A DNA stretch of 64,000 nt, taken from IMG/VR virus record IMGVR_UViG_3300015371_000006, positions 47,597 to 111,596 of that record; one strand, given 5' to 3'. The notes under the pieces were generated by a model, which was given only the letters and a program-made list of their open reading frames with translations, had not been told where the DNA came from and searched no databases. Shown in pieces: positions 1-36,486 of this stretch. Source of the DNA: a virus. Every line of letters starts with the position of its first letter. Position 1 is the first letter of the stretch. The position numbers were made by a program, and so were the translations under genes.

Positions 1-3000
1 GGTCGTCGATCTCGCGGTCGACGGCCTCGTCGCGCGCAGCTTCGTTGGCGAGTTCGTCGTGCAGCTCAGCGACGTCGTCGGGCGTCTTCGCGTCGCCGAA
101 GACGAAGGTGCCCTCCAGGTCGGTGATGACGTAGCTGTGCTCGTCGTCGCGCGCGATGACGGCGTTCGGTGCGACCGCCACCTCGTCGCCCACGGCCAGC
201 TTCTCGGCGGCGTCCAGCGCGTCCTCGCGGCTCAGCGACGAGGAGGGGCTCGCCTGGCCTCCGGCGAAGCGACGCAGGTCGGGGTAGGTGGCGGCGAATT
301 GCGCGTCGCTCATCGGCCGCCCACGCACGGAGCCCGTGCTGCCGACGGTCTGCGGGTCGCCCTCGTAGATGTACCAGCCGCGTCCGGCTCGCTGGGCGAC
401 GACGCGCCCGCCGGTCAGGCCGGGCTCGGGGCCGGGGCGGTCCCACACGTACTCGTCCAGCTTGCCGCCCCGTTCCTTGCGCACCTCCAGGCGGCCGCTG
501 CCGGGGCTGCTTCCGGGGCTCCACTGGCCGGTCTTCTGGATCGCCAGCGCAGCTTCGACGGCCGGGCGCGGGACCATCTCCTCGTAGTCGAACTTCAGCA
601 TCACGGCGTCGCCGTCATCCTCGTCGAGAGCGCTCTGCAGTTGCTCCTTCGTGAAGGCCCAGGCCAGCATCCCCGGCTCGTCGGTGTAGTCGTAGCTCGC
701 CTGGTCGGTGCGGCCCTGCGGGATGAAGCGCTTGCCTGACTTGTCTGGCGCGGTCGCGCCCAGGCGCGCGTAGATCTCGGGCTTGCCGCCGCTGGCGGTC
801 ATGAACGCTTCGCTCTCGCGCTTGCCGTCCTTGCCCACCCGGTACGCCTTGCCGTTGGTCGTGATCCCGCCGTAGCCGGAGTTGCCGTAGATCATGAAGC
901 GGTTGCCGTCGTTGTCGACCGCAGCGGTGCCGTACTTGTCGGCCCAGCTCTGCGAGTCGGCGTTGATCAGCTTGTCCATCGAGCCCCACACGTAGCGGGC
1001 CTTGGAGGTGTCGCCCTCCCAGCCCTTCGTCCAGCCGAGCTTCTTCTTGCCCGTGCCGGGTGACGCCTGGCCGGGGCTGTGCTGACCGCCCATCGAGTCG
1101 GTGAAGCCGGGCGGCGGTTCGACTTCCTGATCGCTGGTCTCGACCTTGTCCAGCGGGACCACGAGCGTGCCGTGGTTGTCGGTCTTGACCCGCAGCTGGC
1201 CGAACTTGTGGTCGACGACCTCGCCCTGGACGAGATCCTCCTGCCCGCCGATCCTCGCCACCTTCGTGGTGATGTTCGTGCCCACCGGGTAGGCGGCCCT
1301 CGCCGCTGCGTCGCGCTCCTCGCGGCTGAGCTTTCCGCCGGGGCTGGCCTGGCCCAGTGGCCCCGTGGTCACCGGCACCGAACCGCCCGCGTTCTTGAGC
1401 TGGCGCTTCTCGCCCTTGGTCAGCTCGCGCTTCTCGGCGACCCGACTGAGCAGCTGGGCGATCTGCTTGTCCCGCATCTCGGCGTTCGCCGAGGTCCGGC
1501 TGCGGATCTGGCGGATCGAGCGCTGGATCGACTCGTGCTCGGGCGTCCCACCGAGGGTCATCGTGGGGCTGCGCTGACCCAGCGGCGGCATGCTGCTCAC
1601 GCCACCGGACGCCAGCCTGCGGTTGTGAGCGCCCTTCGCCCGCGCGTAGTCGTTGGCCTGCTTGCGGGCGAGGTAGTCCTGGTCGTCGAGGACGGCTTCG
1701 GCGGCTCGGGGCGGGTCGTATCCCTCCCCGACCGAACCGTCGGCGTAGTGGACGTCCACCAGCCCGTCCTCGCGGGCCTTCACCCAGGTCAGGCCATAGC
1801 TCTGCTCCTCGCCGGGCCAGAGGTAGTCGAGGTCGCCGACGATCTCGTCCTTGCTCAGCGCCTCGCCGGGGCTGCGCTGGCCGCCGGGCTTCGCGTCGCG
1901 CAGCTTGACGATCAGGTCGAGATCCTCGGGGTCGATGATCGTCTTGTTGCGCAGTGACTTCGCCAGGTTGCCGAACACCCGGCGGGTGTTCTCCTTGTTG
2001 ACGCCGTTCTTCGCCACGTCGGCGGCTAGGTTGCCGTCGGTCATCTTGATCATCGACACCACGTCGTCCATCTCGGCGTCGCTCATGTGCGTGTCGATTC
2101 GGCTGCGCTTCTTCGCCAGCTGCCGCAGCATGTCGTGGTCGCTGAGGCCGGGGCTCGCCTGGTAGCTGTCGGCGCGCATCTTCTCCAGCGCCGCGTCGTA
2201 GTCCAGCTTCGGCAGCTCGGGTGCCTTGCCGGTGGACGGGACGCGCTTGCGGCGTTCCAGGGCTCGCCGCTGCGGCGCGAGGGAGCGCACGGCAGCGTCG
2301 GCCTCCTCGGAGGGCGCGGCCTGCAAGCTCGGCGGGGAGAGCTGCAGCTTGTGGCCCGCGACCATCACCGACTTGCCGTCGGGGGTCACCTTGCCGCGCG
2401 AGCCGCCCAGGCTCACGCTGTCGCCGGGACGCAGCACGCGGCCGCGCCCCTCGGGGGCGAAGGTGCCGTCGGGCAGGCGGCGGATGCGGGCGATCCGGGC
2501 GGCCAGCTCGGAGGTCTTGCGCGCGGCTCCGCGCAGGCTCGCCTCCAGCAGCTCGCAGGCGGCTTCCTGCACGTCGATGTTCGGGTAGCGGCGCTTGACG
2601 GCGGCGCGGACCTTCTTCTTCTCGTCGGCCGATCCGTGCTGGCTTACGCGCGCGAGCGCGTTGCGCGCGTGGGCCTCGTCGTGGATCGGGTAGCGGCGGT
2701 CCGGCAGCGCGAAGTCGGAGTCGGGACGCTTCTTCCGAGCGGCGGCCGTCAGCGTGCCCTCCTCGACCTCCTTCTTGTTCGCGGCCGCCTTGGCCTTGAA
2801 CTTCTCGTCGCGGGCCTTGCTCAGGGAGTGGCCGCACTTCTTGCAGTCGGCGTTGCGGGCGCTCTGCTCGGTGCCGCACTCGGGACACTTGACGCTCTGC
2901 TCGGTTGTCTCGTCGCCCTTGCCCTCCTTCTCGGCCTTCGTGTCAGCCTCGGCCAGGCTCTGGTCGCGCTGGGGGTTGCGGGCGTTGCGCTTCTTGCGGC

Positions 3001-4750
3001 GCTTGTTGCGCTCGGCATCGGTCAGCTTCGGCTCGGGGGTGGAGGTATCAGCCGCAGGCTTGTTTCCCAGCAGGCGCTTGCGCAGCTTGCGCTTGTCCTG
3101 CGGGGTGAGCGCGCCTGGCGTGACTTGAGCCGCCTCGCCGCCTGAAAGCAGCGCCGTAGCAGTCTGGTGACCCACGATCCCGTCGACCATTAGCCCGTTT
3201 TCGCGCTGGTATTGCCTGACCGCCTGTTGGAAGCCCTGGCCGCCGCCGCCCACCTTGTCGGCGATGGCCGATCCCAGGCCACCGGAGGCCGAGCGGATGA
3301 ACTGGCCGCCGCCGGTCCGGCCCTTCGCGGCGCGCGGGTGCTTCTTTTCGAAGTCGCCTCCGGCCGACTGGCCGTCGCGGCCCTTCGGCTTCTTGCCGTA
3401 GTTCATCCCCCAGCGCGTGGTCCCGAAGGGCGTCGTGATCGACTTCGTGCGGAACTCCTCCACGTCGGCGATGCTCTCCTCCAGCTTGTCGCCGTTCTTG
3501 CCGTGGCGCTTGAGCAGCGCCCACGTCTCCGGCCCGATGGCCCCGTCGGCCTTCAGCCCGTAGCGGCGCTGGATGCGCTTGACGCCCTTCTCGGTCTCCG
3601 GCCCGAAGCGCCCGTCCGGCCCGGCGTCGCCGACGTAGGTGCCCATCGCACCCATCGCCTCCTGGGCGGCCTTGACGGAGGGGTCGCCCTCGCCCTGTCC
3701 GACGCCCCGGCCCTTCGCCAGCCAGACGTTCGCGCTGGGCGTATCCGTGGGCGTATCCGTGGGCGTATCGTCGGCGTCCGCGTCGCCCTCGGGCTCGCTC
3801 GGGTTCGCCTCCTCATCAGGATTTCCCCCATTGGGGGAACCGGCGCGCAGCTTCTCCACGTCCTCGGGCGAGGTGCCGCGCATGGCGATCCGGGTCTTGT
3901 CGCCCAGCACGCCGTCGGGCTTCAGCTCGTGGTCGCCCTGAAAGCTCTCGACCGCGCCCTTGGTCTCCTCGCCGTACTCCCCGTCGACGCCGACGTCGTA
4001 GCCCAGCGTCTTCAGCCTGGCCTGGGCCTGGCCTACGAGTTCCCCGGACCCTCCCTGCTTGAGGGTCAGCCCGTCGCTATGTGCCTCGGTAGGGCGGCCT
4101 CGTGGGCTACGCGCTTTGACCTTGGACATGCGCCGCTCTGCATCAGCGACCGGGTCGTCCTTGGCCTCGCGTACCTCCCCGCCCAATTCCTTGGCGAGAG
4201 CACGAAGCTCGGTTGCCTCGGTCAGCAGCGCTCTCGCTGCCTGCGCCTGAGCGCGGGGTTCGGCCGGTGGGCCACCCATCTGCACGATCCGCACGGATTC
4301 GCTGAGCGGAGTTTCGATCAGCTCGGGGACGGCCTTGACCAGTCCCGCCTTGCCCGTTGTCCTCGGTTCGCTGAGCGGTCCCAGCGCGCCCTCGATGACG
4401 ACCAGCCGCGCTTGCACCTCGCGCAGCACCCGCGCCGCCTCCTCGTCGCTGAGGATCAGGTCGGCGACCTCGGCCTCGGTCAGCTTCTTGCGCGAGTGCT
4501 TCAGTCGCCCCGGATCGAACTTGTCGAGCAGCACGGCGCAGCGGCGGTTCGCGTGATCCTTGCTGAGCCCGTGCTTGACCTGGTCGCGCACGCAGGACGT
4601 GAACGGGTGCGGTTTCGCCAGGTAGTGCTTCGCCAGCGGCGCGATCTTCTTCGTGTCGCCAGGGGTTACGTCCGCCGTGCCGGGCTTGCTGAAGGTCTCC
4701 ACCTCTTCGAGGTCACGCCTCTCGGGCGGCTGTTGCTGCGCCTCGGCCAC
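1..4750 (-). CDS. Giant virion-associated polyprotein, partial (at least 1583 aa, runs off left edge): 3 PG_binding_1-like domains, DUF6582-like domain, then 70-170-aa modules separated by GQxSP
   Basis: Hand translation of most of the minus frame (codons at positions = 2 mod 3) found no stop, and the track lists no ORF in this frame, as expected if no stop lies in the window. GTG at 4750 is 6 nt after TACGAT. Motifs: LKQGGSGELVGQAQARLKTLGYDVGVDGEYGEETKGAVESFQ, DGRFGPETEKGVKRIQRRYGLKADGAIGPETW, LTAAARKKRPDSDFALPDRRYPIHDEAHARNALARV. Confidence 0.9.
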   Translation of the reverse strand, partial: MAEAQQQPPERRDLEEVETFSKPGTADVTPGDTKKIAPLAKHYLAKPHPFTSCVRDQVKHGLSKDHANRRCAVLLDKFDPGRLKHSRKKLTEAEVADLILSDEEAARVLREVQARLVVIEGALGPLSEPRTTGKAGLVKAVPELIETPLSESVRIVQMGGPPAEPRAQAQAARALLTEATELRALAKELGGEVREAKDDPVADAERRMSKVKARSPRGRPTEAHSDGLTLKQGGSGELVGQAQARLKTLGYDVGVDGEYGEETKGAVESFQGDHELKPDGVLGDKTRIAMRGTSPEDVEKLRAGSPNGGNPDEEANPSEPEGDADADDTPTDTPTDTPSANVWLAKGRGVGQGEGDPSVKAAQEAMGAMGTYVGDAGPDGRFGPETEKGVKRIQRRYGLKADGAIGPETWALLKRHGKNGDKLEESIADVEEFRTKSITTPFGTTRWGMNYGKKPKGRDGQSAGGDFEKKHPRAAKGRTGGGQFIRSASGGLGSAIADKVGGGGQGFQQAVRQYQRENGLMVDGIVGHQTATALLSGGEAAQVTPGALTPQDKRKLRKRLLGNKPAADTSTPEPKLTDAERNKRRKKRNARNPQRDQSLAEADTKAEKEGKGDETTEQSVKCPECGTEQSARNADCKKCGHSLSKARDEKFKAKAAANKKEVEEGTLTAAARKKRPDSDFALPDRRYPIHDEAHARNALARVSQHGSADEKKKVRAAVKRRYPNIDVQEAACELLEASLRGAARKTSELAARIARIRRLPDGTFAPEGRGRVLRPGDSVSLGGSRGKVTPDGKSVMVAGHKLQLSPPSLQAAPSEEADAAVRSLAPQRRALERRKRVPSTGKAPELPKLDYDAALEKMRADSYQASPGLSDHDMLRQLAKKRSRIDTHMSDAEMDDVVSMIKMTDGNLAADVAKNGVNKENTRRVFGNLAKSLRNKTIIDPEDLDLIVKLRDAKPGGQRSPGEALSKDEIVGDLDYLWPGEEQSYGLTWVKAREDGLVDVHYADGSVGEGYDPPRAAEAVLDDQDYLARKQANDYARAKGAHNRRLASGGVSSMPPLGQRSPTMTLGGTPEHESIQRSIRQIRSRTSANAEMRDKQIAQLLSRVAEKRELTKGEKRQLKNAGGSVPVTTGPLGQASPGGKLSREERDAAARAAYPVGTNITTKVARIGGQEDLVQGEVVDHKFGQLRVKTDNHGTLVVPLDKVETSDQEVEPPPGFTDSMGGQHSPGQASPGTGKKKLGWTKGWEGDTSKARYVWGSMDKLINADSQSWADKYGTAAVDNDGNRFMIYGNSGYGGITTNGKAYRVGKDGKRESEAFMTASGGKPEIYARLGATAPDKSGKRFIPQGRTDQASYDYTDEPGMLAWAFTKEQLQSALDEDDGDAVMLKFDYEEMVPRPAVEAALAIQKTGQWSPGSSPGSGRLEVRKERGGKLDEYVWDRPGPEPGLTGGRVVAQRAGRGWYIYEGDPQTVGSTGSVRGRPMSDAQFAATYPDLRRFAGGQASPSSSLSREDALDAAEKLAVGDEVAVAPNAVIARDDEHSYVITDLEGTFVFGDAKTPDDVAELHDELANEAARDEAVDREIDD
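3736..3770. repeat. 12-bp tandem repeat x3 (TGGGCGTATCCG), encoding a DTPT linker
   Basis: Seen directly. Confidence 0.8.
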
Positions 4751-4941
4751 GTCGTCATCGTAACCGCGCCCTGGGCGGCTACCCCGGTTGGACTTCGATC
4801 CGTAGCGGCGTGTTGCCCGGTGCGGTGACGTGGATGATCCGGCGGCGGTGCTCGGTGCGGACCTCGCTGATCTTGATATCGGGGTCGGCGACCAGCGCCT
4901 GCTCGACGCCACTGAAGCCCCGGTTCAGCCGCTCGCGCGTG

Positions 4942-9036: not shown

Positions 9037-9041
9037 GTTGG

Positions 9042-9054
9042 CCTCCTTGGTCGG
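9042..9054 (-). promoter_or_regulatory. Start-associated sequence CCGACCAAGGAGG (representative copy)
   Basis: Exact copies also at 26979, 29002, 47075, 51995 and 62297. Confidence 0.75.
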
Positions 9055-9236
9055 TTGACCGGACAGCCTACCAGCAATTTCTTACGGCTATTTATTACTG
9101 CGGCTCAGGGTGCCCGCCAGCCGGATCGGGCAGGCGCGCGCGTGTGAGGTCGTCTCGCGGTCGCAGATGCGGCAGTAGTCGCCGAGGCCGGGGTAGCGGC
9201 GGTGGCCGTTGATCCAGATCCAGTAGAACGCGTCGC

Positions 9237-17945: not shown

Positions 17946-20900
17946 CTAACGGGGCTTGACGACGGCGTCGACCACGGTCGCCCCGTCGATGAGCTTGCTG
18001 CCGGTGATGCGAATCGACGTGCGCCGGGGCAGCACCACGCGGCCGGGCGTCGGATCGGTGACGGTGTCGAGCGTCGAGGGCATCAGCGCGTGCGCTCCGG
18101 TCGGGACCGTGAGCCGCAGGGTGACCACGCCGGGCGTCGGCGCGTACTGCGTCTCGGCGTTGAGGTAGCTCTTCTCGGTCATCCACTTCCCGGCCAGCTC
18201 GCCTGCGTTGTCGGCGTTGATCTTGCTGTCGGCGGGCAGCGGGACGTAGGCGTAGAAGTCCTCGTCGACTCGGGTCACCCTGTCGCCCAGCAGGGCGTCC
18301 AGCTGCGCCACGGTGCCCTGCGTCTCGGCGTCGGCGGCCGCGCGCTTGGCCCCGGAGCGCAGGTGGGCGTCCACCACGTCGTGGCCCTGGCCCAGGTAGT
18401 GCTCCATCGCTGCGTCCTCCTCGGGGTAGGTCTCCAGCGATGCGTCGCGCGCGCTGAATTCGTCGAGCACCTCCTCGCCGCTCAGCGGCTCGGGGATCTC
18501 CTCCTCGCCTCGGCTGTAGCGCCCCAACCAGGCGACTCGGGCCTTGAGGTTCTCGCGGACGCGCTCGCGCATCTCCTCATCGTCGAACGGGGCCGCGTCC
18601 ACCAGCGCGTCGATGCGCTCGGGGGTCAGACGCAGCTCGGCGTCCTTGGCGGCGGCCCGCATCCCCTCCTCGGTGATCGCCATCCGCGTCCACGCCTGCC
18701 CGCCAGGCTTGTTCATCGTCCACAGCTCGGTCGGCACCGGCCCGAACGGCTTCGGCCCGCCCATCGCCCGGTACTCCAGGGTGCCGCCCTGGTCGAGTCG
18801 GATCGGGGTGTCGCCGTTCCACAGCACGTTGTCCTGCGCCAGGCCGACCACGTCCCAGTTGCCCAGCAGCGCGTCGGCGACGAAGCCGTCGGCCAGCGTT
18901 TCATCGGCGTGTTGCCACTGGCGCTCCTCGCCGTCCACGAGCGGGTAGGTCAGCGCGCGGGTCTTGCCGAACTTCGGCACGTTCACCTCGGTGTAGCCCG
19001 CGTTCGGGACGGTGATCCCCAGCTCGCGGTAGATCGAGTTCGCCAGCAGCTCGGTTGCCACGCGGTCGCGGTTGCCCTTGTACGTCTTCACCAGCCAGCG
19101 GCGGCCCTCGGCGTCCTCGGCCATCCGCGCCCCGTTCGACCCTCCTGCGGGCTTGACGTCCTTGAGCTTCGTGGCGGTGTAGTCGGGGATGCCCTGCACC
19201 GGCTCGGGCGGGGCTTCCATCTCGGAGCGCTCGACCTCTTCGGTGCGCTCGGGCTTGCCGCCGTCCCAGCTCGCCTGCATCTTCGCCAGGAACGCCTTCA
19301 TCCCCGGCAGCTCAGGTGGGCTGGCCTGGCCTACTCCTCCGGCTTCTCCTCCGGCTTCTCCTCCGGCTCCGGGTCCGACTCGTAGCGCAGCGTCTCCCCC
19401 TCCAGGTACTCCGCTGCGTCCGGCGGGAGATCCGGGGCTGGCGGCGGCTGCTCCTTCGGGTCCATCGAGGCCCATCCTACCCTGCGCCAGGAAGCCGTCC
19501 ATCTTCTCGGCGTCGAGAATCTTCAGCTCGCCGCCCACATCCTTGTCGGCGATCAGCTTCGCGGGCTCGCCGCGCGGCACGTCGGTGTCCCACACCCGCA
19601 GCCGCAGCCAGGGGAGTTCGTCGTCGTACTCGGTGAAGCGCTGGGGCACGCTGCGGTAGGCGTTGTCGACGATGTGGTCGGGCACGGTGCGGCCGCTGCG
19701 CTCGGCGCGCTCGGCCACGCGGACCTTGCCCTTTTCGTGGGGGAGGTGGGCGACGTCGACCTCCACGTCGTAGCCGTCGGCGTGCGCCTGCTCCAGCTTC
19801 TCGCGGAAGCGCCCCGCGCCGGAGTTGCCGACGCCGTCGATCAGCACGTCGAGGCCCCGGTTGAAGGCTCGCGCGCGCAGCGTCCGGGCGATGATCGAGG
19901 ACTCCTCATGCACGCCCGCGCCGCTGTAGGGGTCGCGCGCTTCGATCATCGCCTGGTACTCGGGCAGCTTCTCCTTGATCGCGTCGGGGTTGACCTCGAC
20001 CATGCCGGTGGCCTCGGCGCTCAGCATCGAGGACTTGCCCGAGCCCGGTCCGCCTGCGGTGAACGCCGCGCGCGGCTTGCGGCCCGAGGGTGGTTCGTGG
20101 CCTTCCAAGAAGCTGTTGATGATCTCCTCGTGCAGCGCCCGGCGCTCGTCGGCGTAGACCCGGCCGGTCGGGGTCATGCGCGACCACTTCGCCTCGGTGT
20201 CGACGGCCTCGCCCAGCACCTCATTGGCCGTCGGCCCCTTCTCCACCTGCAGCCGATCCTCGGGGCGCTCGGCGGGGCTGGCCTGGCCCATCATCACCGA
20301 GCTGAGCGCATCCCAGGCGTTGGCTGCCAGCTGCTCCTCTGAGGCCGCGTCGGCGTCACGGATCGCCTCCAGGGCGCGCACCTCCTCTTCGTCTCGCAGC
20401 GTCGTGATCGCCGGTTCGACCTCCTCGCGGCTCAGCCCGTCAACCGAACCCACGTCGCGCTTGACCGCGTAGGTGCGCGTGCCGTCGCGGTCGCGGGTGA
20501 CGCTTACCTCGCTGCCGTCGCTCAGGGTGATCGTCGATGCGTCGGGCTGACCGGGGTAGAAGTCCAGCTCGTCGAGGTTCCTGCGGTCGCGGTCGCTCAG
20601 CGGCCTGCGGCCGAAGCCGGTCGGGCGGGGGCGGTCCAGTGCGCCCCGCCAGGCGGCGAGCGCAGGCATCGGCCCCGCTGCTCCGAGGGTCTGCACGCGC
20701 TGGGCATAGGGATTCCACGCCACATGGCGCGACAGGTGCAGGCCGGGGCTGGCCTGCCCGCCTTGCGCCTCCAGGGATTCGCGGTCGAGCAGCAGCTCGT
20801 TCTCGCCCGCCAGCTTGCCCAGCCACAGCGCCTTGGTCCCGGCGGGCACCGTGACCTCCTGAACGTCGCCGAATCGCTCGGCATCAGCCTTTCGCGTGCT

Positions 20901-23900
20901 GGTGCTCACGAACGGCCCGCGCAGCTTGCCGTCGTCGGCCCCGCCTCGGTAGACCGTGACCGCCTCGGGGAGCGCCCTCATCGCCCTGCGCAGCATCTTG
21001 ACCTGCGGCCCCAGCTTGTACTCGCGGTCGAGCGAGGGGTCGTAGAGGATCTCGTCGGGATCGTCCGACTCTTGGAACGGCGTGCTGTCAACGATGTACA
21101 GCTCAGCCGCGTTCTGTTGGCGCGGTCCCAGCTCGGGCGCATTCGCGTCGAGCATCTCCTCAGCCGCCTTACCCTTCAGTCCGGGGCTGGCCTGGCCAGT
21201 CGCCTTACTGATTGCGGCCTTCACCAGCGAGTCGTCGAGCGCCCGGCGCTCCTCCGGCGTGCGGTCGGGGTCGTCGTCGGCGTGCTGATCCATCGCGTCG
21301 GCGATCAGCGCCTCCAGGTCGGCGGTGTCCTCGCCGGGCTCGACCCAGCCGTTGAGCATCGACTTCGTCAGCTCGTCCTGCACGGCCTGGCGCTGCTCAG
21401 GGGTCAGCTGGTCGAGGCCGGGGCTGGCCTGGCCTGCCATCGCGCGCAGGCGCGGGTCGTCTGACTGGGACAGGTACTCCTGCTTGCGGGCCTGCAGCGA
21501 GTCGGCGATCTCGCTGCCCACCGGCTCGCCGTCGCGGGTGTAGCGGGCCTGGTGGCCGTAGTACGCCTGCGACCAGTTGTAGCCGTCGGTAAGCCGGTAG
21601 CCGTGGTCGATGACCTTGCCCTTGTTCTGCGCCTCCAGCTCGCGCATCAGCTGGGTGGCGATGCCCCGGCGCTGGAACTCGGGGATGACCTCGATCTTGT
21701 CGATGCCGATGTCGGCGTTGGCCTCGCGCGCTTTCTTGCCGATGGCGGGCCGGTAGCGGCTGTAGGTCAGCTTGCCCACCTCCCTGCCGTCTACCTCGGC
21801 CACCAGGCCGTCGAAGTATTCGGTGTCGCCTCGCTTGCGCGGCTTGATCTCGGCGGGGCTCAGCTGGCCCGACTTGACCGCGTCGTCTACCTGGGGGTTC
21901 CAGGCGTCCAGGGTTGCGGGCGGACTCGCCTGCCCCAGCGCGAGCTTCGTGTCCGGCATCAGGCCCTTGCCTGCGGGCTGGGCGACACCGGAGCGCACGG
22001 CGATGCCGTAGCTCTCGGCGTTGCTCATCCGGTTCGTGGTCGCGTAGCGCTTCCGTGAGCCGTCGGGGCGTTCGATCAGCACGCTGTCGCCGCGCTTGCC
22101 TCGGGTGATCGTCGAGCCATCGGCGGCCTGCAGGCTGTCGCCTCGCTGCAGCGCTCGGACCTTGCGGATCAGCGCCCGGCGCGGGTCGGAGTAGTTGTGC
22201 GGGTCGAAGCTGCCGGGCTCGATGTCGAGCGCCTCGGCGTTCGGCTCGGCGATCCCCATCTCCTTCATCGTCCGCTTGACGAAGACGCGGTCCTTCTCCT
22301 TCTCGGCTTCGGGCAGGTCGGCGTAGGGCTTCAGCAGCTCCGGCTGGTCGGCCTTCGCCCAGCTCTGGTTGCGGTCGATCCAGGCGTCGTGCACCTCGGA
22401 GGCCAGCCGCTCCATGTCGAGCGCACCCTCCTCATCGCGCATCCGGGTGATCGCGTCGTAGGCCGACGCCGCGCCGTCGCGGTTCTCGGCTTGGAACTTC
22501 TCGGGCAGCTCGTCGTAGGTCATGTCGGCGATGTCGATGGTCCCGCCCCCATAGGGCTTGGGCCGGGGCTCGTAGTTGCGGTCCTTGCGCCACTGTTCGT
22601 GGGCCTGTGCCGCGACCCTCTCTACGACCTTGTCTCGCTGCATGGCAGCGCCTGTGAGCGGTTGTTCGGGCGCGCCCTCTGCACCCTGCCCCTCCGGGGC
22701 GTCGCCGCCTCTGGCGCGCTTACGGCTCTCCGCTCCAGGGCGGGCTCGGGACACGTCGAGGACGCTCGACTCGCGCAGCAGCACCATCTCGCCGTCCTCG
22801 GTGAGCGCCTCGGCCTTCCAGCCCAGCGCGTCGTCGTCCTCGACCTTGCGCAGCTCGGCCACGGTGATGTCGCCGTTGTTCTGCTTGATCCGCACCACAT
22901 CGCCCTCCGCGACCGGGCCGGTGATGTTGTTGCCCTTCAGGTTGCGCCGGGGCGGATCGGCCAGGAACTCCACGTCGTCGGGGTCGGGGTAGCGGGTGAC
23001 GGTGTCCACGATCTGGCCGTTGTGGTCGCGCAGCTTGACCTCGACCTCGGCGTACCAGCGCCCGTCCTCGCCCACCATCGCGTCGGTGACCACGCCCTCC
23101 CAGGGCTCCTTGCGCCCCGTCACGCGCACGCGCGCGCCCGCGCGGATGCGCATGCGGTGGTCGGTGTAGTTGGGCTGGCGCAGCACCTCCGCTCCGGCGG
23201 CCCCCGGCCCGGCGAAGTGCTCGACCGTCCTCGCCATCAGGTCGCGCGCTCGCGCCTCGCCCTTCTCGGGGGTGACGCCCTGCGCGCCTGCCAGCAGCCC
23301 GCCGAGGATCTCGAAACGCTTCTCGGGGTCGGCGCTGAAGGCCAGGTTGTGCAGCAGCTCGCGGCGGTTCTCCAGCGGGACGTGGGCTTCGTCGAGCAGG
23401 AGCCCGAGCGCTGCGCGCTGGGGCAGGTAGGTGCCCTGGGCTCGGATGTCGTCGGGCTTGCGGCCCAGCCAGCGCAGGACGTCGTGCTGTCCGTTGCGCT
23501 TCAGCAACTCGACCGCCCACTCGTGAGCCATCTCCTCGGTCAGCGCCTCGTCGAGGCTGAAGTGCTCCGGCTGGGCGAAGGTCTCGGGGTTGATCGGGTT
23601 GACGCCGTGGGAGGCCTCGTGCATCGCCGTGCGGTAGGCGTTGTAGACGCCCGCTGCGGTGTCGTCGTCGAGCCGCCGCTTCTCCACGCGGGCGGCGTGG
23701 GCGGCCTGCAGGTGCACCTGGGCGGCCCGGCCGACTTGCACCTCGCCGTCCCAGCTGCGAAAGCCGCCCGTGTCCTCGTCGGCTTCGTTGATGCGGATCG
23801 ACTTCAGCACCACCTGGCGGCCGTGCGTGTCGCCGATTTGCTGTGCAAGCCCGGCCACTCCGGCGGCAAGACCGGAGAAGTCCTCTGGTGCGCCAGCCTT

Positions 23901-25109
23901 CTGGGCCGCCATATTGCCTGCAAAGGGCACAGGAACTGGAGAAGACGTCGGGCCCCCGGCTCCATCCGGCACATCCGGCACATCCGGCGTCCCAGCAGGC
24001 ATCCCGCCGGGTGCCGCCTGGCCCCCGACCTGCGTGGTGACCCTTGCTGGGATCGGGTCCGACCCGCGCTGCGCGAGCTTCGGCGCGTCCGTGCCGTGCA
24101 GGAACCGGAGCACGTCGTTGAGGCTGATCCTCGGCGCAAAACCCCCGCGTCTTGGGCGGAAACGGCCGCCCCACACCGTGCCCTTGGCGAACCGCTCGTC
24201 CCAGGCGACCTCCTCCATGTCGAGCACGAGGTCTGCGGGTGGGACATCGGTGCCCTCGGGCTGGGACATACCGCCGGACATATCCCCAGTCAGAGACACG
24301 AGAAAGTCACCATTTGCAGGGGTTTCGCCGTTCGAGCTGAGGGACATCTCCAGGGACATCTCGGTGACACGTTCGGCCAGTAGGGCCTCTTGCAGCAGGC
24401 CGTATCGCTCAGCGATCTGCTGGGCGCGCCGGTCGGCCGCCTCGGTGTCGGGAGCCTCGGCTCCCATCAGCCCCATGTCGTATGCCTCGTCGTGCGTGAG
24501 CAGCTCGCAGCGGCAGCCCGTGTGCGTCGGCGGGTTGATCCGGTCGAGCACGCTCCAGGGCCACCAGCCGACCGTCGCCATCGCCAGGCAGTCCGGGGTG
24601 TGCTCCTTGACCGCTTCGCTGAGGTGCCAGAACGCGCCCTCGGGGCTCAGCCTGCGGACCATGCCCCTGCGCGCGGTCGCCTGCACGCGAGCGGCCGCCG
24701 CCTCGTGGTGTGCCTCGGTGAACCGCCGCTCGCGCTCCAGCACCCGCTTGACCGCCGCCTCGGGTTCGTCGCGCTGCAGGGCCGCCGGGATGTCGCGGCG
24801 CATCCGCTCCTCCATGCGCCGGTAGAACTCGACGTCGCGCTCCTGCTCGACCCGCGCGGCCTCGGCCAGCTCGGCATCGCTCACGTCGGCGCGTGCGAAC
24901 TCCGGTCGGATCGCCTTGACGATCCAGTCCGCGCCCTTGCTGCGCCGCCTCAGCGCCGCGACGGCCGCCCCGATGGCGGCCCCGGCCTGTCCCGAGGCCA
25001 CCTCGCCCCCAGCAGCGTCGTCGTCGCCGGAGGCTGCGATGACGCCCCCCGCTGCGGCCGCCGCCAGGATCGCCTCGGTGTTGTCGTCCTGCTTCGCGCG
25101 CGTCGGCAT
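17946..25109 (-). CDS. MuF (phage head morphogenesis) fused polyvalent effector polyprotein: MuF, zincin, SH3-like, RyR, GNAT, ART, Zeta kinase, HipA/PI3K-like kinase, degenerate ART
   Basis: HTPDC..PPTHTGCRC (MuF); HEASH..E; HEQW/HDAW..PYADLPEAEKEKDR (RyR); EVIPEFQRRGIATQLM; VYRG..STST..ENE; GGPGSGKS..NPDAIK..HEES; GGSNG..LVK..DALLGNWD..DN..RLDQGG. Confidence 0.9.
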   Translation of the reverse strand: MPTRAKQDDNTEAILAAAAAGGVIAASGDDDAAGGEVASGQAGAAIGAAVAALRRRSKGADWIVKAIRPEFARADVSDAELAEAARVEQERDVEFYRRMEERMRRDIPAALQRDEPEAAVKRVLERERRFTEAHHEAAAARVQATARRGMVRRLSPEGAFWHLSEAVKEHTPDCLAMATVGWWPWSVLDRINPPTHTGCRCELLTHDEAYDMGLMGAEAPDTEAADRRAQQIAERYGLLQEALLAERVTEMSLEMSLSSNGETPANGDFLVSLTGDMSGGMSQPEGTDVPPADLVLDMEEVAWDERFAKGTVWGGRFRPRRGGFAPRISLNDVLRFLHGTDAPKLAQRGSDPIPARVTTQVGGQAAPGGMPAGTPDVPDVPDGAGGPTSSPVPVPFAGNMAAQKAGAPEDFSGLAAGVAGLAQQIGDTHGRQVVLKSIRINEADEDTGGFRSWDGEVQVGRAAQVHLQAAHAARVEKRRLDDDTAAGVYNAYRTAMHEASHGVNPINPETFAQPEHFSLDEALTEEMAHEWAVELLKRNGQHDVLRWLGRKPDDIRAQGTYLPQRAALGLLLDEAHVPLENRRELLHNLAFSADPEKRFEILGGLLAGAQGVTPEKGEARARDLMARTVEHFAGPGAAGAEVLRQPNYTDHRMRIRAGARVRVTGRKEPWEGVVTDAMVGEDGRWYAEVEVKLRDHNGQIVDTVTRYPDPDDVEFLADPPRRNLKGNNITGPVAEGDVVRIKQNNGDITVAELRKVEDDDALGWKAEALTEDGEMVLLRESSVLDVSRARPGAESRKRARGGDAPEGQGAEGAPEQPLTGAAMQRDKVVERVAAQAHEQWRKDRNYEPRPKPYGGGTIDIADMTYDELPEKFQAENRDGAASAYDAITRMRDEEGALDMERLASEVHDAWIDRNQSWAKADQPELLKPYADLPEAEKEKDRVFVKRTMKEMGIAEPNAEALDIEPGSFDPHNYSDPRRALIRKVRALQRGDSLQAADGSTITRGKRGDSVLIERPDGSRKRYATTNRMSNAESYGIAVRSGVAQPAGKGLMPDTKLALGQASPPATLDAWNPQVDDAVKSGQLSPAEIKPRKRGDTEYFDGLVAEVDGREVGKLTYSRYRPAIGKKAREANADIGIDKIEVIPEFQRRGIATQLMRELEAQNKGKVIDHGYRLTDGYNWSQAYYGHQARYTRDGEPVGSEIADSLQARKQEYLSQSDDPRLRAMAGQASPGLDQLTPEQRQAVQDELTKSMLNGWVEPGEDTADLEALIADAMDQHADDDPDRTPEERRALDDSLVKAAISKATGQASPGLKGKAAEEMLDANAPELGPRQQNAAELYIVDSTPFQESDDPDEILYDPSLDREYKLGPQVKMLRRAMRALPEAVTVYRGGADDGKLRGPFVSTSTRKADAERFGDVQEVTVPAGTKALWLGKLAGENELLLDRESLEAQGGQASPGLHLSRHVAWNPYAQRVQTLGAAGPMPALAAWRGALDRPRPTGFGRRPLSDRDRRNLDELDFYPGQPDASTITLSDGSEVSVTRDRDGTRTYAVKRDVGSVDGLSREEVEPAITTLRDEEEVRALEAIRDADAASEEQLAANAWDALSSVMMGQASPAERPEDRLQVEKGPTANEVLGEAVDTEAKWSRMTPTGRVYADERRALHEEIINSFLEGHEPPSGRKPRAAFTAGGPGSGKSSMLSAEATGMVEVNPDAIKEKLPEYQAMIEARDPYSGAGVHEESSIIARTLRARAFNRGLDVLIDGVGNSGAGRFREKLEQAHADGYDVEVDVAHLPHEKGKVRVAERAERSGRTVPDHIVDNAYRSVPQRFTEYDDELPWLRLRVWDTDVPRGEPAKLIADKDVGGELKILDAEKMDGFLAQGRMGLDGPEGAAAASPGSPAGRSGVPGGGDAALRVGPGAGGEAGGEAGGVGQASPPELPGMKAFLAKMQASWDGGKPERTEEVERSEMEAPPEPVQGIPDYTATKLKDVKPAGGSNGARMAEDAEGRRWLVKTYKGNRDRVATELLANSIYRELGITVPNAGYTEVNVPKFGKTRALTYPLVDGEERQWQHADETLADGFVADALLGNWDVVGLAQDNVLWNGDTPIRLDQGGTLEYRAMGGPKPFGPVPTELWTMNKPGGQAWTRMAITEEGMRAAAKDAELRLTPERIDALVDAAPFDDEEMRERVRENLKARVAWLGRYSRGEEEIPEPLSGEEVLDEFSARDASLETYPEEDAAMEHYLGQGHDVVDAHLRSGAKRAAADAETQGTVAQLDALLGDRVTRVDEDFYAYVPLPADSKINADNAGELAGKWMTEKSYLNAETQYAPTPGVVTLRLTVPTGAHALMPSTLDTVTDPTPGRVVLPRRTSIRITGSKLIDGATVVDAVVKPR
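19331..19465 (-). CDS. Nested out-of-frame 44-aa acidic protein, candidate antitoxin/immunity protein for the Zeta domain
   Basis: TAGGAT 8 nt before ATG; MDPKEQPPPAPDLPPDAAEYLEGETLRYESDPEPEEKPEEKPEE*; high-GC3 codons while the host frame has atypical codons. Confidence 0.55.
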   Translation of the reverse strand: MDPKEQPPPAPDLPPDAAEYLEGETLRYESDPEPEEKPEEKPEE

Positions 25110-26564: not shown

Positions 26565-26972
26565 CTATACGCCGTAGTTGTAGCCGCTGTTGCTCGTGTC
26601 GGCGCTCGCGGCGATGATGATGATCAGGACGACGATGGCCGCGCCGATGATCCCGAGGACGAGCCCGGCGGTTGCCATGCCCCCTCCGGTCTGCATCCCG
26701 TTGCTCTCGCGGATGTTCTTCTTGGCGACGGCCGCGAAGATGATCGCCAGGATGCTCAGGACGCCGTAGCCCCACAGCAGGCCGCAGACGAGGCTGGCGA
26801 TTGCCATGCCGGACGTCTTCGCCTGCGCCGCCGGTCCGGTGACGGTCTGCGCCGGGGCGCGGTTGTCGGTCCACTCCGAGCCGGTCCAGTAGCGGACGGT
26901 GCTCGGGTCGTTCGGGTCCGGGTACCAGCCCGCGCCGGGTGCGGCCGGGGCTGCCGGAGTTGCGTCGCTCAT
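26565..26972 (-). CDS. DUF2510 + DUF4190 membrane protein
   Basis: GWYPDP..RYWTGSEWT; TSGMAIASLVCG..G.GMATAGLVLG. Confidence 0.85.
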   Translation of the reverse strand: MSDATPAAPAAPGAGWYPDPNDPSTVRYWTGSEWTDNRAPAQTVTGPAAQAKTSGMAIASLVCGLLWGYGVLSILAIIFAAVAKKNIRESNGMQTGGGMATAGLVLGIIGAAIVVLIIIIAASADTSNSGYNYGV

Positions 26973-27053
26973 ATTGGTCCTCCTTGGTCGGGTGGAGCGA
27001 TTGATTGTCGCAACCTACCACGCCCGCGCCTCAATGGTCATGACCCGCCCGAT

Positions 27054-29418: not shown

Positions 29419-29642
29419 CGGAGTCCTCCTTTCGGTGGCGGACCGGACAAGCTACCGACAATCGCTCCTCAACGGGCTTTTTCGGCCCAGTGCGGGCAGG
29501 ATTCTTCGTGCCCGATGGTGATCGTCTTGCCGACGTGGACGACCGGGCGGCAGGTGCAGCCGGTGGCCGCGAGCGTGACTCGGATCAGCGCATCCCACGT
29601 TCCGCCCCGGCACAGGTAGAGCTGGGGCGTGGCGGGCACGGC

Positions 29643-30126: not shown

Positions 30127-32133
30127 TCATTGGCCCAGCTCCCTGATCGGCTTCGTGATGTCGTCGAAGTCGTCGGCGGCCCGTTTCGCCTGCTCGCGCA
30201 CACGGCGCTGGGCCTCCTCGGTGCGCAGGCGGTCGACCATCTGCTCCTCCAGGTCCGACAGGGCCTGCTCGCGCGTGACGTAGCGGCTCTCGGTTGGCCC
30301 GTAGGGGTTGGCCTCCGGCGTCGAGGCCGCCATCGGCGCGCCGTAGGGGTTGGCCTCGCCCTGCGGGGCCCCGCCGTTGCCGTTGATGGTGATCCCTGGC
30401 GGGAGCTGCTCCTGGGGCTGTTGCTGTTGCTGCAGCGCTTCCATCGCCGGGTCGGTGTAGCCGGGCGGGAACACCTTCTCGGTGACCTCGGCCGGGTCGC
30501 TCATCTCCAGGCCCTCGCCGATGGCGATGCTGAACAGCGTCCGGGTCAGCTCGATGTTGGTCCCGTTCGGGTCGAAGGTGCGCGCCACGGTGGCGACGCT
30601 GTTCACCAGCTCGGTCATCATCCGCCGCAGCGGGCTCGGCAGGGAGAAGTCGTAGCTGAGATCGCGCTTGCGCTCGTCCTCGGGCACCTCCTCGGGGATC
30701 TCGCCGTCCTCGTCGGTCGGGTCGGGCGCGCCCAGCTCGGCCTGGGTGTCGGCCTTCGGCGGCGTCGGCACGGCGGGGGCGTCCTCGGTGCCCTCCTGCT
30801 CGCGGTCCTCCTGGCGCTCTGCCCACTCCTCGTAGCTCAGCTCCTCGGTCAGCCGCCCGGCCTCCAGGGCCTCGTGGATCACCTGGTCGCAGAACCAGCG
30901 GAACATCTGCTCGAAGACCTCTTGGCGCGATTCGACCGCCTTCAGCACGGGCAGCTCCATCGAGGTGGCCGTCGCCAGGTTCGCCGAGCCGATGTCGCCG
31001 AGGTAGTGCTGGGGGAAGTGCGTCGCGGCGCTGATCTGCGAGCGGATCATCTGCCCGTCCACGTTCGCGCCGGTCGCCCCGCTGTCCAGCTTGAAGCTCT
31101 CGTGCTCGACCTGCTCGTTCTCGGTGATGATCGAGCCGCCGCTCGGCCCAGCGACCACGGAGGTGTCGGAGTCCACGGTCCGCCCCAGCTCGCCTCGGGT
31201 GCTCAGCGCCTGGTTGGCCATCTTGCGGATCTGGTTCGGCGTGCCCTTGACCTTGCGCTTCATGATGAACGCGGCGGCTGCCTTCGCGGCATCCACGCGG
31301 GCCTCCATCAGCGAGTTGAAGGCGTTGGCCCAGCGCAGCACCCGGTGCATGGTCGGGTGCCCGAAGGCCATCTCGGAGGTCTTGTTGACGGCGACGTGGT
31401 AGACGCGGCCCTTGCCGGTCTTGTTCGCCGGGGGCTTGAGCCCGCCCTTCTCGTTGTTCCAGTGCTGGTAGTAGAGGATGCGCTGGCCGCGCTCGGGCGC
31501 GTCGTAGAGCAGCTGGGGGCCGTCCTTTTGGAAGTCCCACTTCATCTGCTTGCGGCGGCTGACGTAGTAGAGGACGCGCAGGCGGTTGTCGGGATCGCGG
31601 ACGACGTTCTCGACGCTGTCGTGCTCCAGCATCCCGAGCTTGACCTTGCCGTCGTCGCCCGTGAACTTCAGCAGGAAGATGTTGCTCTGCAGGGTGATGT
31701 CGGTCCCGAGCGCGAGCTGCGCCGGGTAGCTGGTCAGCGCCAGCTGGTTGTCCTCGTCGTCCCAGGCTTCGTCGAGGATCTCCTGCACCTTCTCGTCGCG
31801 GGCCTTCGGACGCGGGACGCCCCGGCCCAGGCAGAAGTCGTTCATCAGGTCGGTGGCCGCGCCGAGCTGCGCGTCCTGTTGCCAGGCTACCCGCGCTTGC
31901 TGCACCAGCGCCCGGCGCTTGACCGCCTGCAGATCCTGCTCGGAGCCGCCCTCGTAGTCCAGCAGGGTCCAGCCGATCAGGTCGAGCTGTTGGCGCAGCA
32001 CTCGCCGGTCCTCGACCATCGCCTCCATGACGTCGAGTTCGTCGGCGTCGACGGTCGTCTCGCCCCGGTTGCTCAGGCGCGTGCGCGCCCAGCGGTCGAG
32101 GAAGCCCTCGCGCTTCTCGTCGTCCTCAGCCAC
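30127..32133 (-). CDS. Phage portal protein
   Basis: Position downstream of TerL; size; DFCLGRG, GNIF-like SNIF, YHVAVN..FGHP, G..NLATA..ME.P motifs. Confidence 0.85.
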   Translation of the reverse strand: MAEDDEKREGFLDRWARTRLSNRGETTVDADELDVMEAMVEDRRVLRQQLDLIGWTLLDYEGGSEQDLQAVKRRALVQQARVAWQQDAQLGAATDLMNDFCLGRGVPRPKARDEKVQEILDEAWDDEDNQLALTSYPAQLALGTDITLQSNIFLLKFTGDDGKVKLGMLEHDSVENVVRDPDNRLRVLYYVSRRKQMKWDFQKDGPQLLYDAPERGQRILYYQHWNNEKGGLKPPANKTGKGRVYHVAVNKTSEMAFGHPTMHRVLRWANAFNSLMEARVDAAKAAAAFIMKRKVKGTPNQIRKMANQALSTRGELGRTVDSDTSVVAGPSGGSIITENEQVEHESFKLDSGATGANVDGQMIRSQISAATHFPQHYLGDIGSANLATATSMELPVLKAVESRQEVFEQMFRWFCDQVIHEALEAGRLTEELSYEEWAERQEDREQEGTEDAPAVPTPPKADTQAELGAPDPTDEDGEIPEEVPEDERKRDLSYDFSLPSPLRRMMTELVNSVATVARTFDPNGTNIELTRTLFSIAIGEGLEMSDPAEVTEKVFPPGYTDPAMEALQQQQQPQEQLPPGITINGNGGAPQGEANPYGAPMAASTPEANPYGPTESRYVTREQALSDLEEQMVDRLRTEEAQRRVREQAKRAADDFDDITKPIRELGQ

Positions 32134-32518
32134 TCTTCGCCTTCGCCTTCGACTTGGACTTGGACTTCGGCTCGGGCTCCTCGTCGCCGTCACCGTTCGT
32201 GCCCTGCTCGCCCTTGCGCGCTGCATCGCGCAGGATCGCGGCCGCCTCGCGGTAGGCCATCTGCGCCTTGTTGGAGTTCGGCATCCCCGACGTGCGGGCC
32301 AGCGCTTGGTCGAGCATGTCGGCCGAGGTCTCCAGCAGCACTGAGCGGCCGTTCGTGGCGGCGTGCTCGTCCTCTGCCTCGGCTCTGCCCTCTTCGCGGC
32401 CCCGCTCGTAGTTGCGCTTCAGTAGGTCGCGGACCTCCTTGGCGGTGTCGCGCGTGTCGCCCCCCTTGATCGCAATCCGGCGGGCATCAGCCGCCAGCCG
32501 TCGTCGGTTGTCAGCCAT
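32126..32518 (-). CDS. Hypothetical protein
   Basis: Overlap coupling with portal. Confidence 0.65.
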   Translation of the reverse strand: MADNRRRLAADARRIAIKGGDTRDTAKEVRDLLKRNYERGREEGRAEAEDEHAATNGRSVLLETSADMLDQALARTSGMPNSNKAQMAYREAAAILRDAARKGEQGTNGDGDEEPEPKSKSKSKAKAKSG

Positions 32519-34597: not shown

Positions 34598-36322
34598 TCA
34601 CTGGTCGAATCCGGGCTCGTAGACGTCCACCTTGCTCTCCAGCTGCACGGTGCCCCGGTCCAGCTCCGTGCGTTCGAAGTCGTACATCTCTTCGAAGCTC
34701 ATCGTCTCGCCCTGCTCCAGCTCGTTGACGCCGGTCTGCCAGAGGAAGACCTCTTTGGCGAGCATGTCGTAGACCTCGGCCATCGCGTGGTCGAACGGCT
34801 GCCCGCCGTTGACGTACTCGACCTTCATCTGGCCCTTCTCGTTCTCCTCCTGCACGCGCGTGAGCGCCTGTAGCTGCTCGACGTAGTCGGTCGGCCGGGT
34901 CTCCGGGCTCGGCAGCAGGTTGCGTTGCTGGCGGATCGCGTCGAAGGTCGCGTCGATGGCGGGGGTCCGCTGCACGCTCACGGCCCGCATCTCCGGCTCG
35001 ACCTTCATCACCTCGTTGTGCGTCCCGAAGCGGGCGAGGTAGATGCGGCCGGGGAAGCGCTCGGCCAGCTGGCGGGCCAGGCGGCCTTCGGGCAGGTGGT
35101 CGATGCAGAGGATGTTCACGGAGTAGCGGTCCATCAGCTCGCCGACCTGGCCGAAGCTCTCGACCTCGCCGACGAACAGCGGCGTCTTGTACGGGTCGCC
35201 GCCGCCCTTGCGCTTGGGCTCGTGGTGCAGGCTGATCCGCACGTTCAGGTTGCGCGTCGTGGCGACGTCGACGCCTCCGGTGACCAGCGAGCCGCCGCTG
35301 TAGGGGTCGGCGATAGCGGGGAGGTCGCGGGTGGCCGCTTCGATTGCAGCATCGGTCAGGCGGCCCTCTGCCGGTGCCCACGCCTCGGCGAGATCCTTGT
35401 TGAAGTGGACCTGGCGCTCGTAGGCGTTCGTCTTGTAGTGCGCCGCGACGATGGTCGGGATGTCGGCGTGCGCCACGATCAGGCGGGGCATGTGGTACCC
35501 GCGCACCAGCCGGTCGGGGTGCTTTGCCACCCACTCGCCGCCCAGCACATCGAGGGGCTTCCGGCACTTCGTGCAGACCAGGTGGGCGTCGGGCCACTCG
35601 TCGTTGACCGGCGTGCCCTCCTCGATGTTCGCGTAGCTCGGCGTTTGCTGCTCGCCGCAGCGCTCGCACTTGACCATCCAGAAGCGCTGGTCGGTGCGGT
35701 TGAAGGCGCGGTCGATCCCGTAGCCGGGGATGGAGGGGACGCCGACCCGTCGGGTCTTGCCGTCCAGCGACCCGGAGATCCGGCGCTCGGCGTCAGGGAT
35801 GTTCTCCTGGCGCAGCGTGTCGTACTCATCCAGCGCGAGGATGTCGGCCGGGACCGCATCGAGGTCGTGCTTTGACTCGCTCCCGCGCGCGTAGAGGTGG
35901 CCGCGCCCGATCTTCTTCAGGCCCTTGTTGTTCACGTCGCCGACGGGGATGCGCTTGCTCAGGTACGGGCTCGCCAGGATCGCCGCCTTCACCCGCGCGT
36001 CGGAGAAGTCGTACATCTGCTGGCGCTTCGGGAACACGTAGAGGCTGTCGGTCGCGCGCACGTCGCAGTGCCACATGACCCAGCGCAGCAGGTAGGTGCT
36101 GACGCCGACCTGGGTGGCCTTCTTGACCACGGCCTCCTTCGCCATCGCTCCCGGCGTGTCGTACAGCTCGCGTTGGAACGGGTAGCGGTTGAAGTCCAGC
36201 TTGCCGGTCTTCGGCTCGGGCACCAGCAGGGACCATTCGAAGAAGCTGATGATCATCCCCGCGCGGTGCTCGCGACGTCGGTTGACGCTCTCCATGAACG
36301 CGCTGCCGGGGGTTGCCGTCAC
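34598..36322 (-). CDS. terL: Terminase large subunit (lambda gpA-like family)
   Basis: YPFQREL; KKATQVGVS (Walker A); LALDEYD (Walker B); CERC..CTKC; GGVDV and CID nuclease motifs; leaderless TAGGAT. Confidence 0.92.
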   Translation of the reverse strand: MTATPGSAFMESVNRRREHRAGMIISFFEWSLLVPEPKTGKLDFNRYPFQRELYDTPGAMAKEAVVKKATQVGVSTYLLRWVMWHCDVRATDSLYVFPKRQQMYDFSDARVKAAILASPYLSKRIPVGDVNNKGLKKIGRGHLYARGSESKHDLDAVPADILALDEYDTLRQENIPDAERRISGSLDGKTRRVGVPSIPGYGIDRAFNRTDQRFWMVKCERCGEQQTPSYANIEEGTPVNDEWPDAHLVCTKCRKPLDVLGGEWVAKHPDRLVRGYHMPRLIVAHADIPTIVAAHYKTNAYERQVHFNKDLAEAWAPAEGRLTDAAIEAATRDLPAIADPYSGGSLVTGGVDVATTRNLNVRISLHHEPKRKGGGDPYKTPLFVGEVESFGQVGELMDRYSVNILCIDHLPEGRLARQLAERFPGRIYLARFGTHNEVMKVEPEMRAVSVQRTPAIDATFDAIRQQRNLLPSPETRPTDYVEQLQALTRVQEENEKGQMKVEYVNGGQPFDHAMAEVYDMLAKEVFLWQTGVNELEQGETMSFEEMYDFERTELDRGTVQLESKVDVYEPGFDQ

Positions 36323-36486
36323 GCCTCCATCCTAATTGCCGAGGTCGGCTACCCGGCCAGCAGCCAGATGATCCAGGCCCAGGCCGTGAGGTACAGCGCG
36401 CAGGCCGCCCAGCCGTCGCGCGCGTAGTTGTCGGAGGTCAGCTTCACGCCCCACCCATCGGCAGGCGCGGCCGGAGATTGAGGGCT

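Follow-up and report, generated by a model that had tools for sequence, protein, structure and literature searches.

The internal head proteins IPI-III and Alt of phage T4 are processed by the prohead protease gp21. In SPN3US- and phiKZ-type phages, ejection proteins are cleaved by the prohead protease, which recognises a short motif (PMC5694885, PMC10052503). Polyvalent proteins of phages and conjugative elements, for which processing by a zincin peptidase was predicted (Iyer, Burroughs, Anand, de Souza and Aravind, 2017; PMC5512222), are giants of the head module that often contain MuF, zincin, ART, zeta-kinase and peptidoglycan-directed domains, and they were proposed to be packaged and delivered with the DNA (PMC5512222). 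In the MuF polymorphic toxins of temperate phages, variable toxin domains are carried on MuF (Jamet et al., 2017; PMC5576092), and in crAss-like phages virion proteins are fused into one very large polypeptide, described as "likely cleaved into individual components", and a zincin-like protease is encoded nearby (bioRxiv 10.1101/2020.03.07.982082). Here we describe P0002, a giant protein encoded on the minus strand of the IMG/VR virus record IMGVR_UViG_3300015371_000006 (111,596 bases, 69% G+C), of which bases 47597-111596 form the stretch of 64,000 nucleotides analysed (the window). P0002 is composed of a conserved head of ~800 amino acids (aa), an array of 12 small units and a conserved C-terminal tail of ~570 aa, and a short peptide, G-Q-x-S-P, punctuates the array. 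We put at roughly 0.55 the probability that P0002 is a cargo polyprotein packaged in the phage head and cut at this motif by a phage protease.

The locus shares features with each of these systems. Like the polyvalent proteins, P0002 joins several unrelated domains in one polypeptide (head domains, the 12 units and the tail), but the enzymatic and effector domains are missing from it and are found in a neighbouring giant of 2,423 aa (GNAT, ART and Zeta_toxin), which is a close fit to that class. No conserved joint peptide was described for polyvalent proteins, the word "linker" never occurring in that work (PMC5512222), whereas the joint code of P0002 is genome-specific and common to several proteins; moreover, relatives could be detected for just a few of its modules, which measure 60-180 aa. 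Prohead-protease cargo (T4, SPN3US and phiKZ-type) would be alike in head packaging and in the reading of one short motif in many proteins, both putative here. In those systems, however, capsid and scaffold are cut at the same motif, which neither carries here, the key residue is Glu instead of Q, M or K, and the known cargo undergoes propeptide loss or a few cuts rather than division into a dozen unrelated modules. The MuF polymorphic toxins have a cassette-like variable C-terminal region, comparable to that of the motif-sharing neighbour, but they end in one toxin without punctuation and cleavage is not mentioned (PMC5576092); P0002 itself has no MuF domain. The crAss-like polyprotein comprises three conserved components and no joint motif was described for it, whereas the P0002 array is hypervariable. 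A conserved, genome-specific joint peptide is described for none of these systems, and literature searches for the joint motif returned no publication.

Q-x-S-P occurs 14 times in P0002 (0.40 expected), and 12 of these copies read G-Q-x-S-P (0.04 expected). All are located within residues 803-1935, 59-181 residues apart, nine of them in the window and five to its left. A preliminary description of this DNA, made from the sequence alone, had seen at least seven modules bounded by QxSP below position 2165; seven units of 75-181 aa were found in the window and five more beyond its edge, and the statement that they are unrelated holds in an all-against-all BLAST comparison. The flanks of the motif are Gly/Pro-rich in P0002 and in its relatives P0003 and P0005, and unclear in L005.

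Several independent tests support the view that P0002 strings autonomous small-protein modules together on one chain. A HMMER search against 1.84 billion representatives returned free-standing homologues, all metagenomic, of two modules: unit A (59-109 aa) and module B (63-161 aa). The first and last residues of these homologues coincide with the folded part of the unit, and in P0005 module B makes up exactly one unit flanked by two motifs. An AlphaFold2 (AF2) model of unit A built from 12 sequences has a mean predicted local distance difference test score (pLDDT) of 80; the helix and five-stranded barrel reach pLDDT ≥90, whereas the motif-bearing ends are unstructured (pLDDT 50-68). With unit A, a structure search yielded only SH3/Tudor-like folds of a generic kind, together with small, uncharacterised proteins of phages (best E value in PDB 0.024). 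Hence, while the modules had been called helical, SH3-like and beta-rich, the SH3-like character was recovered for one unit. No Pfam or PHROG family was matched by any module of P0002, and neither module A nor module B was found in IMG/VR or in 185,579 bacterial and archaeal genomes.

The sequences of 14 family members were divided at every joint, and the resulting pieces were clustered. Head and tail are conserved, and most middle units have no partner in this set. A few units are common to several relatives, at different positions but with equal length, for instance a 69-aa unit present in three proteins, and the swaps fall exactly at the motif. The preliminary description had proposed an array of small injected proteins carried as one chain; unit ends, swaps and fold bear out the array of autonomous modules, and injection, like an anti-defence or host-takeover role of the modules, stays a putative reading.

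A six-frame scan of the genome found G-Q-x-S-P, in real frames, in three genes only, those for P0002 (12 copies), the 2,423-aa giant, which has a MuF-like N-terminus (7 copies), and the tape measure protein (one copy). All seven copies of the MuF-like giant (7/7) lie between Pfam domains. Relatives of P0002 were collected by searches with the conserved head, and each giant peptidoglycan-binding (PG-binding) protein has its own over-represented joint (copies in brackets): Q.SP in P0002 (14), P0003 (13), P0038 (12), P0039 (19) and L005 (12); M.SP in P0005 (18), P0040 (22), P0041 (24) and P0042 (22); K.SP in P0043 (5), P0044 (6) and P0047 (9); M.TP in P0046 (14); RSEGP in P0048 (8); and K.DPG in P0050 (6). 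The variable key residue (Q, M or K, and E in one genome, G004) is always long and unbranched and is usually preceded by Gly. A quick tree built from the heads groups the joint types, with 9 changes compared to 13.3 in shuffles, and none of 200 shuffles was as low.

The joint type is shared by the two giants of a genome. In the present phage (G000), Q.SP is found in the PG-binding giant as given above and 7 times in the MuF-like giant (0.25 expected). In G001, M.SP is found 24 times (0.38 expected) and 11 times (0.20 expected) respectively, and in G004 the corresponding counts for [ED]KG[DG] are 7 (0.34 expected) and 15 (0.53 expected). GMASP is present in three giants of G001, the third of which, the homologue of the neighbouring protein P0036, holds four M.SP copies; no Q.SP was found in the two main giants of this genome. 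Two further complete genomes with direct terminal repeats, G002 and G003 (L014 and L015; 135 and 130 kilobases (kb)), have no array. Their PG-binding proteins are short (1,476 and 1,507 aa) and consist of head and tail only, their MuF-like proteins are of 1,408 and 1,293 aa, and no motif rises above chance in either. The absence of arrays in these two genomes, together with the agreement of joint types within G000, G001 and G004, indicates that the array is an insertion between conserved ends and that the joint type belongs to the genome and not to the protein. These data show that the joint peptide, which the preliminary description had not recognised as such, is a genome-wide code common to P0002 and the MuF-like giant and co-varying across phages.

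Some observations on these genes may be added. G002 and G003 are natural "empty carrier" controls. The MuF-like homologue of G004 (L102:1813-17652, plus strand) is a single open frame of 5,280 aa with 15 copies of G[E/D]KG[D/G], and the P0036 homologue of G001 has an N-terminal extension of ~330 aa with four MASP joints. The tape measure protein (1,390 aa; L003:4406-8575, minus strand, genome 17002-21174, left of the window) carries its single GQASP near residue 500, where the sequence is rich in Ala and Gly; one copy is within chance for the rest of the proteome (~0.5 expected), and it could be a processing site.

The position of the gene favours a location of P0002 in the head interior. It is flanked on one side by the genes for the portal and the MuF-like giant and on the other by those for the protease-scaffold and capsid proteins, and in G001 its homologue is enclosed directly by them. 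Moreover, a domain of ~100 aa that heads the family (..NWV.KAGGLPSYIERIAKHLHYEKG..) is found in more than 360 shorter proteins, P0052-P0169 among them, either on its own or in fusion with Peptidase_S78, XkdF-like S78_2, Phage_Mu_F, PG-binding or BRCT domains, the partners being mostly procapsid-internal proteins; the copy in P0002 itself is degenerate. In MuF proteins this domain is C-terminal, and it may be a general procapsid-association module.

Two proteins of the phage are candidate proteases. P0035 has a conserved N-terminal domain of ~200 aa followed by an acidic coiled coil. With the language-model features of ESM Atlas, this domain scored 0.95 to Peptidase_S77/S80 clusters, and in tblastn proteins annotated as maturation proteases were matched weakly (E 7e-4 to 1e-2). 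The second candidate is the MuF-like giant, in which an HExxH motif and a downstream E-A-L-x-E-E are invariant in five divergent homologues, including those of the array-less phages; at 36% identity, the HExxH region is far more divergent than the P0035 domain. T4 gp21 and phiKZ gp175 cleave after Glu, and Lys-N and Asp-N are precedents for P1' specificity of a zincin; by analogy, the key residue of the joint would suit the P1 pocket of an S77/S80-like protease or the P1' pocket of a zincin.

Conservation of the joint at the peptide level, its placement at module boundaries, its sharing between proteins and its switching genome by genome are best explained by one trans-acting, phage-encoded reader. 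Since the motif recurs in another giant virion protein of this phage, cleavage of the chain into numerous small proteins is probable. P0002 would be a late virion protein of a contractile-tailed phage of ~112 kb, most likely located inside the head, and its array would mark a hotspot of insertion between head and tail, occupied by 12 autonomous modules of small size. G-Q-x-S-P would serve at each joint, and at those of the MuF-like giant, as a genome-specific recognition peptide, most economically read by a phage-encoded endopeptidase that would cut both giants into small proteins, in the capsid or upon delivery. One packaged chain would in this way bring a dozen small proteins along with the DNA. 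Cleavage at the motif, considered by itself, we regard as somewhat favoured.

Several observations weigh against this proposal. P0035 had no match in Pfam, PHROGs or PDB sequences, its AF2 model (pLDDT 46) was unusable, and its protease domain is ~80% identical between Q-type and M-type phages. The HExxH region matched no Pfam family, and nothing in the PDB in a profile sequence search. Neither the capsid nor the protease-scaffold protein (P0035 and its G001 homologue) contains a copy of the motif or a site that co-varies with it (Q.SP in G000, M.SP in G001); the arrangement would thus be unlike T4 or phiKZ-type systems, where a single motif directs one protease to capsid, scaffold and cargo alike. 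This lack of the motif and the ~80% identity speak against P0035 as the enzyme, and the HExxH region matches no family; we therefore treat both proteins as candidates. In addition, the hydrophobic content of the motif flanks is not depleted in P0002, no full-length relatives of P0002 were found among cultured phages, and spread of the joints as DNA could alone yield uniformity within a genome.

This last point is the core of a different explanation, in which the chain would stay uncut as "beads on a string" and the motif would be a scar or micro-homology of cassette DNA joints, kept uniform by copy-and-paste or gene conversion without any reader. The motif Ser is encoded by AGC in 29 of 33 Q-type copies (background ~0.5) and, in G001, by TCG in 27 of 39 (background 0.2), and GCA is used in 22 of 30 joint copies against a background of 0.35. 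This uniformity within genomes exceeds the background, and therefore the joints have spread as DNA; the precise exchange of units at joints and the lack of the motif in capsid and scaffold proteins also suit an uncut chain. However, Ser and Pro are retained across lineages despite the change of codon family (AGC versus TCG), and the x codon varies freely in P0002, which leaves identity of 6 + 9 bases only. Ser is thus kept while its codon family differs and a codon within the motif is free, and therefore the peptide itself is constrained. The sister proteins P0041 and P0046 moreover differ by Ser to Thr at every joint, and a functionless peptide scar should decay. Taken together, both processes seem to act, cassettes being exchanged at joints that are still read as the code of their genome, and we find a chain that is never cut unlikely.

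The reader could also be something other than a phage protease, namely a host protease acting after delivery, an enzyme modifying the joint (phosphorylation of Ser by kinase-like domains of the MuF-like giant, or glycosylation) or the capsid interior, to which the motif would dock as encapsulin cargo peptides do. Ser-Pro is invariant across the Q, M and K types, the capsid and scaffold lack the motif and phage G+C differs (0.69, 0.59 and 0.67), so that hosts may differ, all of which suits such readers; but the joint of G004 (GEKGD) has no Ser-Pro, an uncut protein would need just one docking peptide per chain, and strict boundary placement and the match to free-standing proteins fit a separation of units better. 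We consider these readers improbable, and still a little more so the remaining alternative, that P0002 is a cell-wall-binding protein of the tail or baseplate whose array serves either as a flexible spacer or for binding to surfaces through its domains. Such a role would account for the three PG-binding domains, for the Laminin_G_3 protein and the 1,231-aa repeat protein encoded just downstream and for the GQASP of the tape measure protein. It is opposed by gene order, in which P0002 keeps company with portal, MuF-like giant, protease and capsid (most clearly in G001), by the N-terminal domain that P0002 has in common with prohead proteases and MuF proteins, and by the motif shared with a MuF-like toxin carrier, while the tail genes form a separate cluster. 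Two other mechanisms were rejected. Internal initiation at the Met of M-type joints was discounted because translation could not be initiated at joints of the Q, K and E types and because MASP is not the beginning of the free-standing homologues. Ribosome skipping of the 2A type and self-cleavage were dismissed as well, the motif being unlike such sequences and the joints being situated in disordered linkers.

Were the joints cut as we propose, a single gene would provide the capsid with a dozen different small proteins in fixed stoichiometry. This would explain how many pre-made factors are delivered ahead of gene expression, and also the existence of many tiny phage genes without detectable relatives, the same modules being free-standing and in arrays. 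In a broader proposal, to which we would give slightly less than an even chance, the whole clade would use a true polyprotein system, in which a cleavage code of each genome's own ([G][Q/M/K/E]x[S/T]P and variants) would co-evolve with a dedicated protease. Small genes spliced in frame would be loaded without a targeting signal of their own and freed in the next host, making up a swappable library of injected effectors. A genome-specific code also offers a computational finder of virion cargo, by scanning a proteome for its own over-represented joint peptide, and the joint motif is a clean experimental handle. Pairing of motif type and protease across relatives could show a joint change of protease specificity and dozens of sites.

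Features of the window. Positions are those of the window; residues are those of P0002 unless stated otherwise.
Feature	Position	Strand	Remarks
P0002, in-window part, residues 1-1583	1..4750	-	remainder at genome 44823-47596
P0002 N-terminal region, residues 1-90	4481..4750	-	degenerate copy of the ~100-aa family-heading domain (..GGLPSYIERIAKHL..)
PG_binding_1 domain 1, residues ~233-291	3878..4054	-	Pfam
PG_binding_1 domain 2, residues ~345-414	3509..3718	-	Pfam
HPR..G..GGQF motif, residues 471-484	3299..3340	-	conserved in family; also in P0036, P0004, P0034
PG-binding domain 3 (PG_binding_1/PG_binding_3), residues ~492-538	3137..3277	-	Pfam
CxxC..CxxC zinc-ribbon-like finger, residues 621-643	2822..2890	-	weak Pfam match
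DUF6582-like / phrog_16160 domain, residues 665-725	2576..2758	-	
Conserved end of family head, residues 734-800	2351..2551	-	..RLPDGTFAP.GRGRVLRPG..
In-window punctuated array	245..2344	-	nine Q-x-S-P copies; units 61, 94, 101, 75, 89, 181, 90 aa
Q-x-S-P copies	2333-2344, 2150-2161, 1868-1879, 1565-1576, 1340-1351, 1073-1084, 1058-1069, 515-526, 245-256	-	
Unit A, residues ~1138-1222	1085..1339	-	one helix and five-stranded SH3/Tudor-like barrel; free-standing homologues 59-109 aa
Module B, residues ~1339-1408	527..735	-	..GRTD.ASYDYTD..LKFDYEE.VP..; free-standing homologues 63-161 aa
DUF932 protein	8008-9081	-	
P0036, 1,669 aa	12475..17481	-	HPR..GG.F near N-terminus; many short SH3-like repeats; no GQxSP
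MuF-like giant, 2,423 aa (~2,387 aa from first Met)	17946..25109	-	MuF-like N-terminus, HExxH..E region, RyR, GNAT, ART, Zeta_toxin
GQxSP of MuF-like giant, 7 copies	Gln codons end at 19328, 20285, 20756, 21194, 21431, 21866, 21932	-	
DUF2510+DUF4190 membrane protein	26568-27014	-	around/between head genes
HARE-HTH protein	29149-29451	-	around/between head genes
Portal protein	30130..32418	-	head module context
Terminase large subunit	34601..36331	-	context
DNA methyltransferase	39061-40605	-	around/between head genes

The domains of the conserved head agree with those read from the sequence beforehand. Three PG_binding_1-like domains had been proposed, and Pfam matches three stretches at these places (E 2e-37). 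The HPR..GG.F motif is kept in relatives, the CPEC..CKKC finger was located as well, with a weak Zn_Ribbon_1 match (E 0.024), and the DUF6582-like domain scored 23.6 bits compared to a Pfam cut-off of 27.3 (segment alone, E 7e-5) and matched phrog_16160 with E 4e-17. The conserved C-terminal region lies beyond the window and was absent from the preliminary description; an ESM Atlas search with its 571 aa returned nothing. Neither Pfam nor PHROGs revealed an enzymatic domain in P0002, and we regard the protein as devoid of a catalytic domain because all "endolysin" PHROG matches cover the PG-binding repeats alone. An endolysin or virion-associated peptidoglycan hydrolase was rejected on the same grounds.

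The MuF-like giant had no match to Pfam MuF (Phage_Mu_F, PF04233). When it was aligned with hhalign to four PF04233-bearing proteins, the match was weak (probability 33%, E 4.5e-4), with its C...HTGCRC in register with the C..HPxCRC signature. P0036 had no Pfam or PHROG match. Among cultured phages, the sole P0002 module seen was module B, in a hypothetical protein of 3,289 aa encoded between the portal and capsid maturation protease genes of Actinomycetia phage DSL-LC01 (OQ999401.1, L012:4338-14207); this giant has no repeated joint motif.

The phage probably infects Actinobacteria. PHROGs matches identified the large terminase, the portal, tail sheath and tail tube-type proteins and the tape measure protein, and the capsid protein matched the capsid half of fused protease-capsid families; a cement protein, recognised by Pfam, adjoins the capsid gene. 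Because tail sheath, tube-type and tape measure genes could be placed, the tail is contractile. The standard Pfam models for prohead protease, ClpP, HK97 capsid and MuF had no match in the genome. On the minus strand the order is large terminase, portal, MuF-like giant, P0036, DUF932 protein and P0002, then small genes, the Laminin_G_3 protein, the 1,231-aa repeat protein and a single-strand DNA-binding protein gene, and finally P0035 (429 aa), the cement protein, the capsid protein and the tail genes.

As for the reading frame of P0002, an open minus frame from GTG 4750 to the window edge, of at least 1583 aa, had been noted, and there is indeed no in-frame stop in 1-4750. The frame is uninterrupted from the first bases of the window up to 4912 and runs 2,773 bases past its left edge before it meets a stop (genome 44823-44825); this leftward extension gives a protein of 2,507 aa counted from GTG 4750. 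G+C by codon position is 0.69/0.49/0.92, typical of real genes in this genome, and a spurious open frame of a 70% G+C genome is ruled out by these values and by the homologues. No strong ribosome-binding site is visible ahead of GTG 4750, which is the likely start because homologues begin ~10 residues ahead of the shared RDLEEV and because ~4781 is the end of a small gene read in a different frame. This upstream gene ends in ...RIEVQPG, with its stop near 4781, and the open frame of P0002 reaches 54 codons upstream of GTG 4750 (4781-4912, minus strand), overlapping its end.

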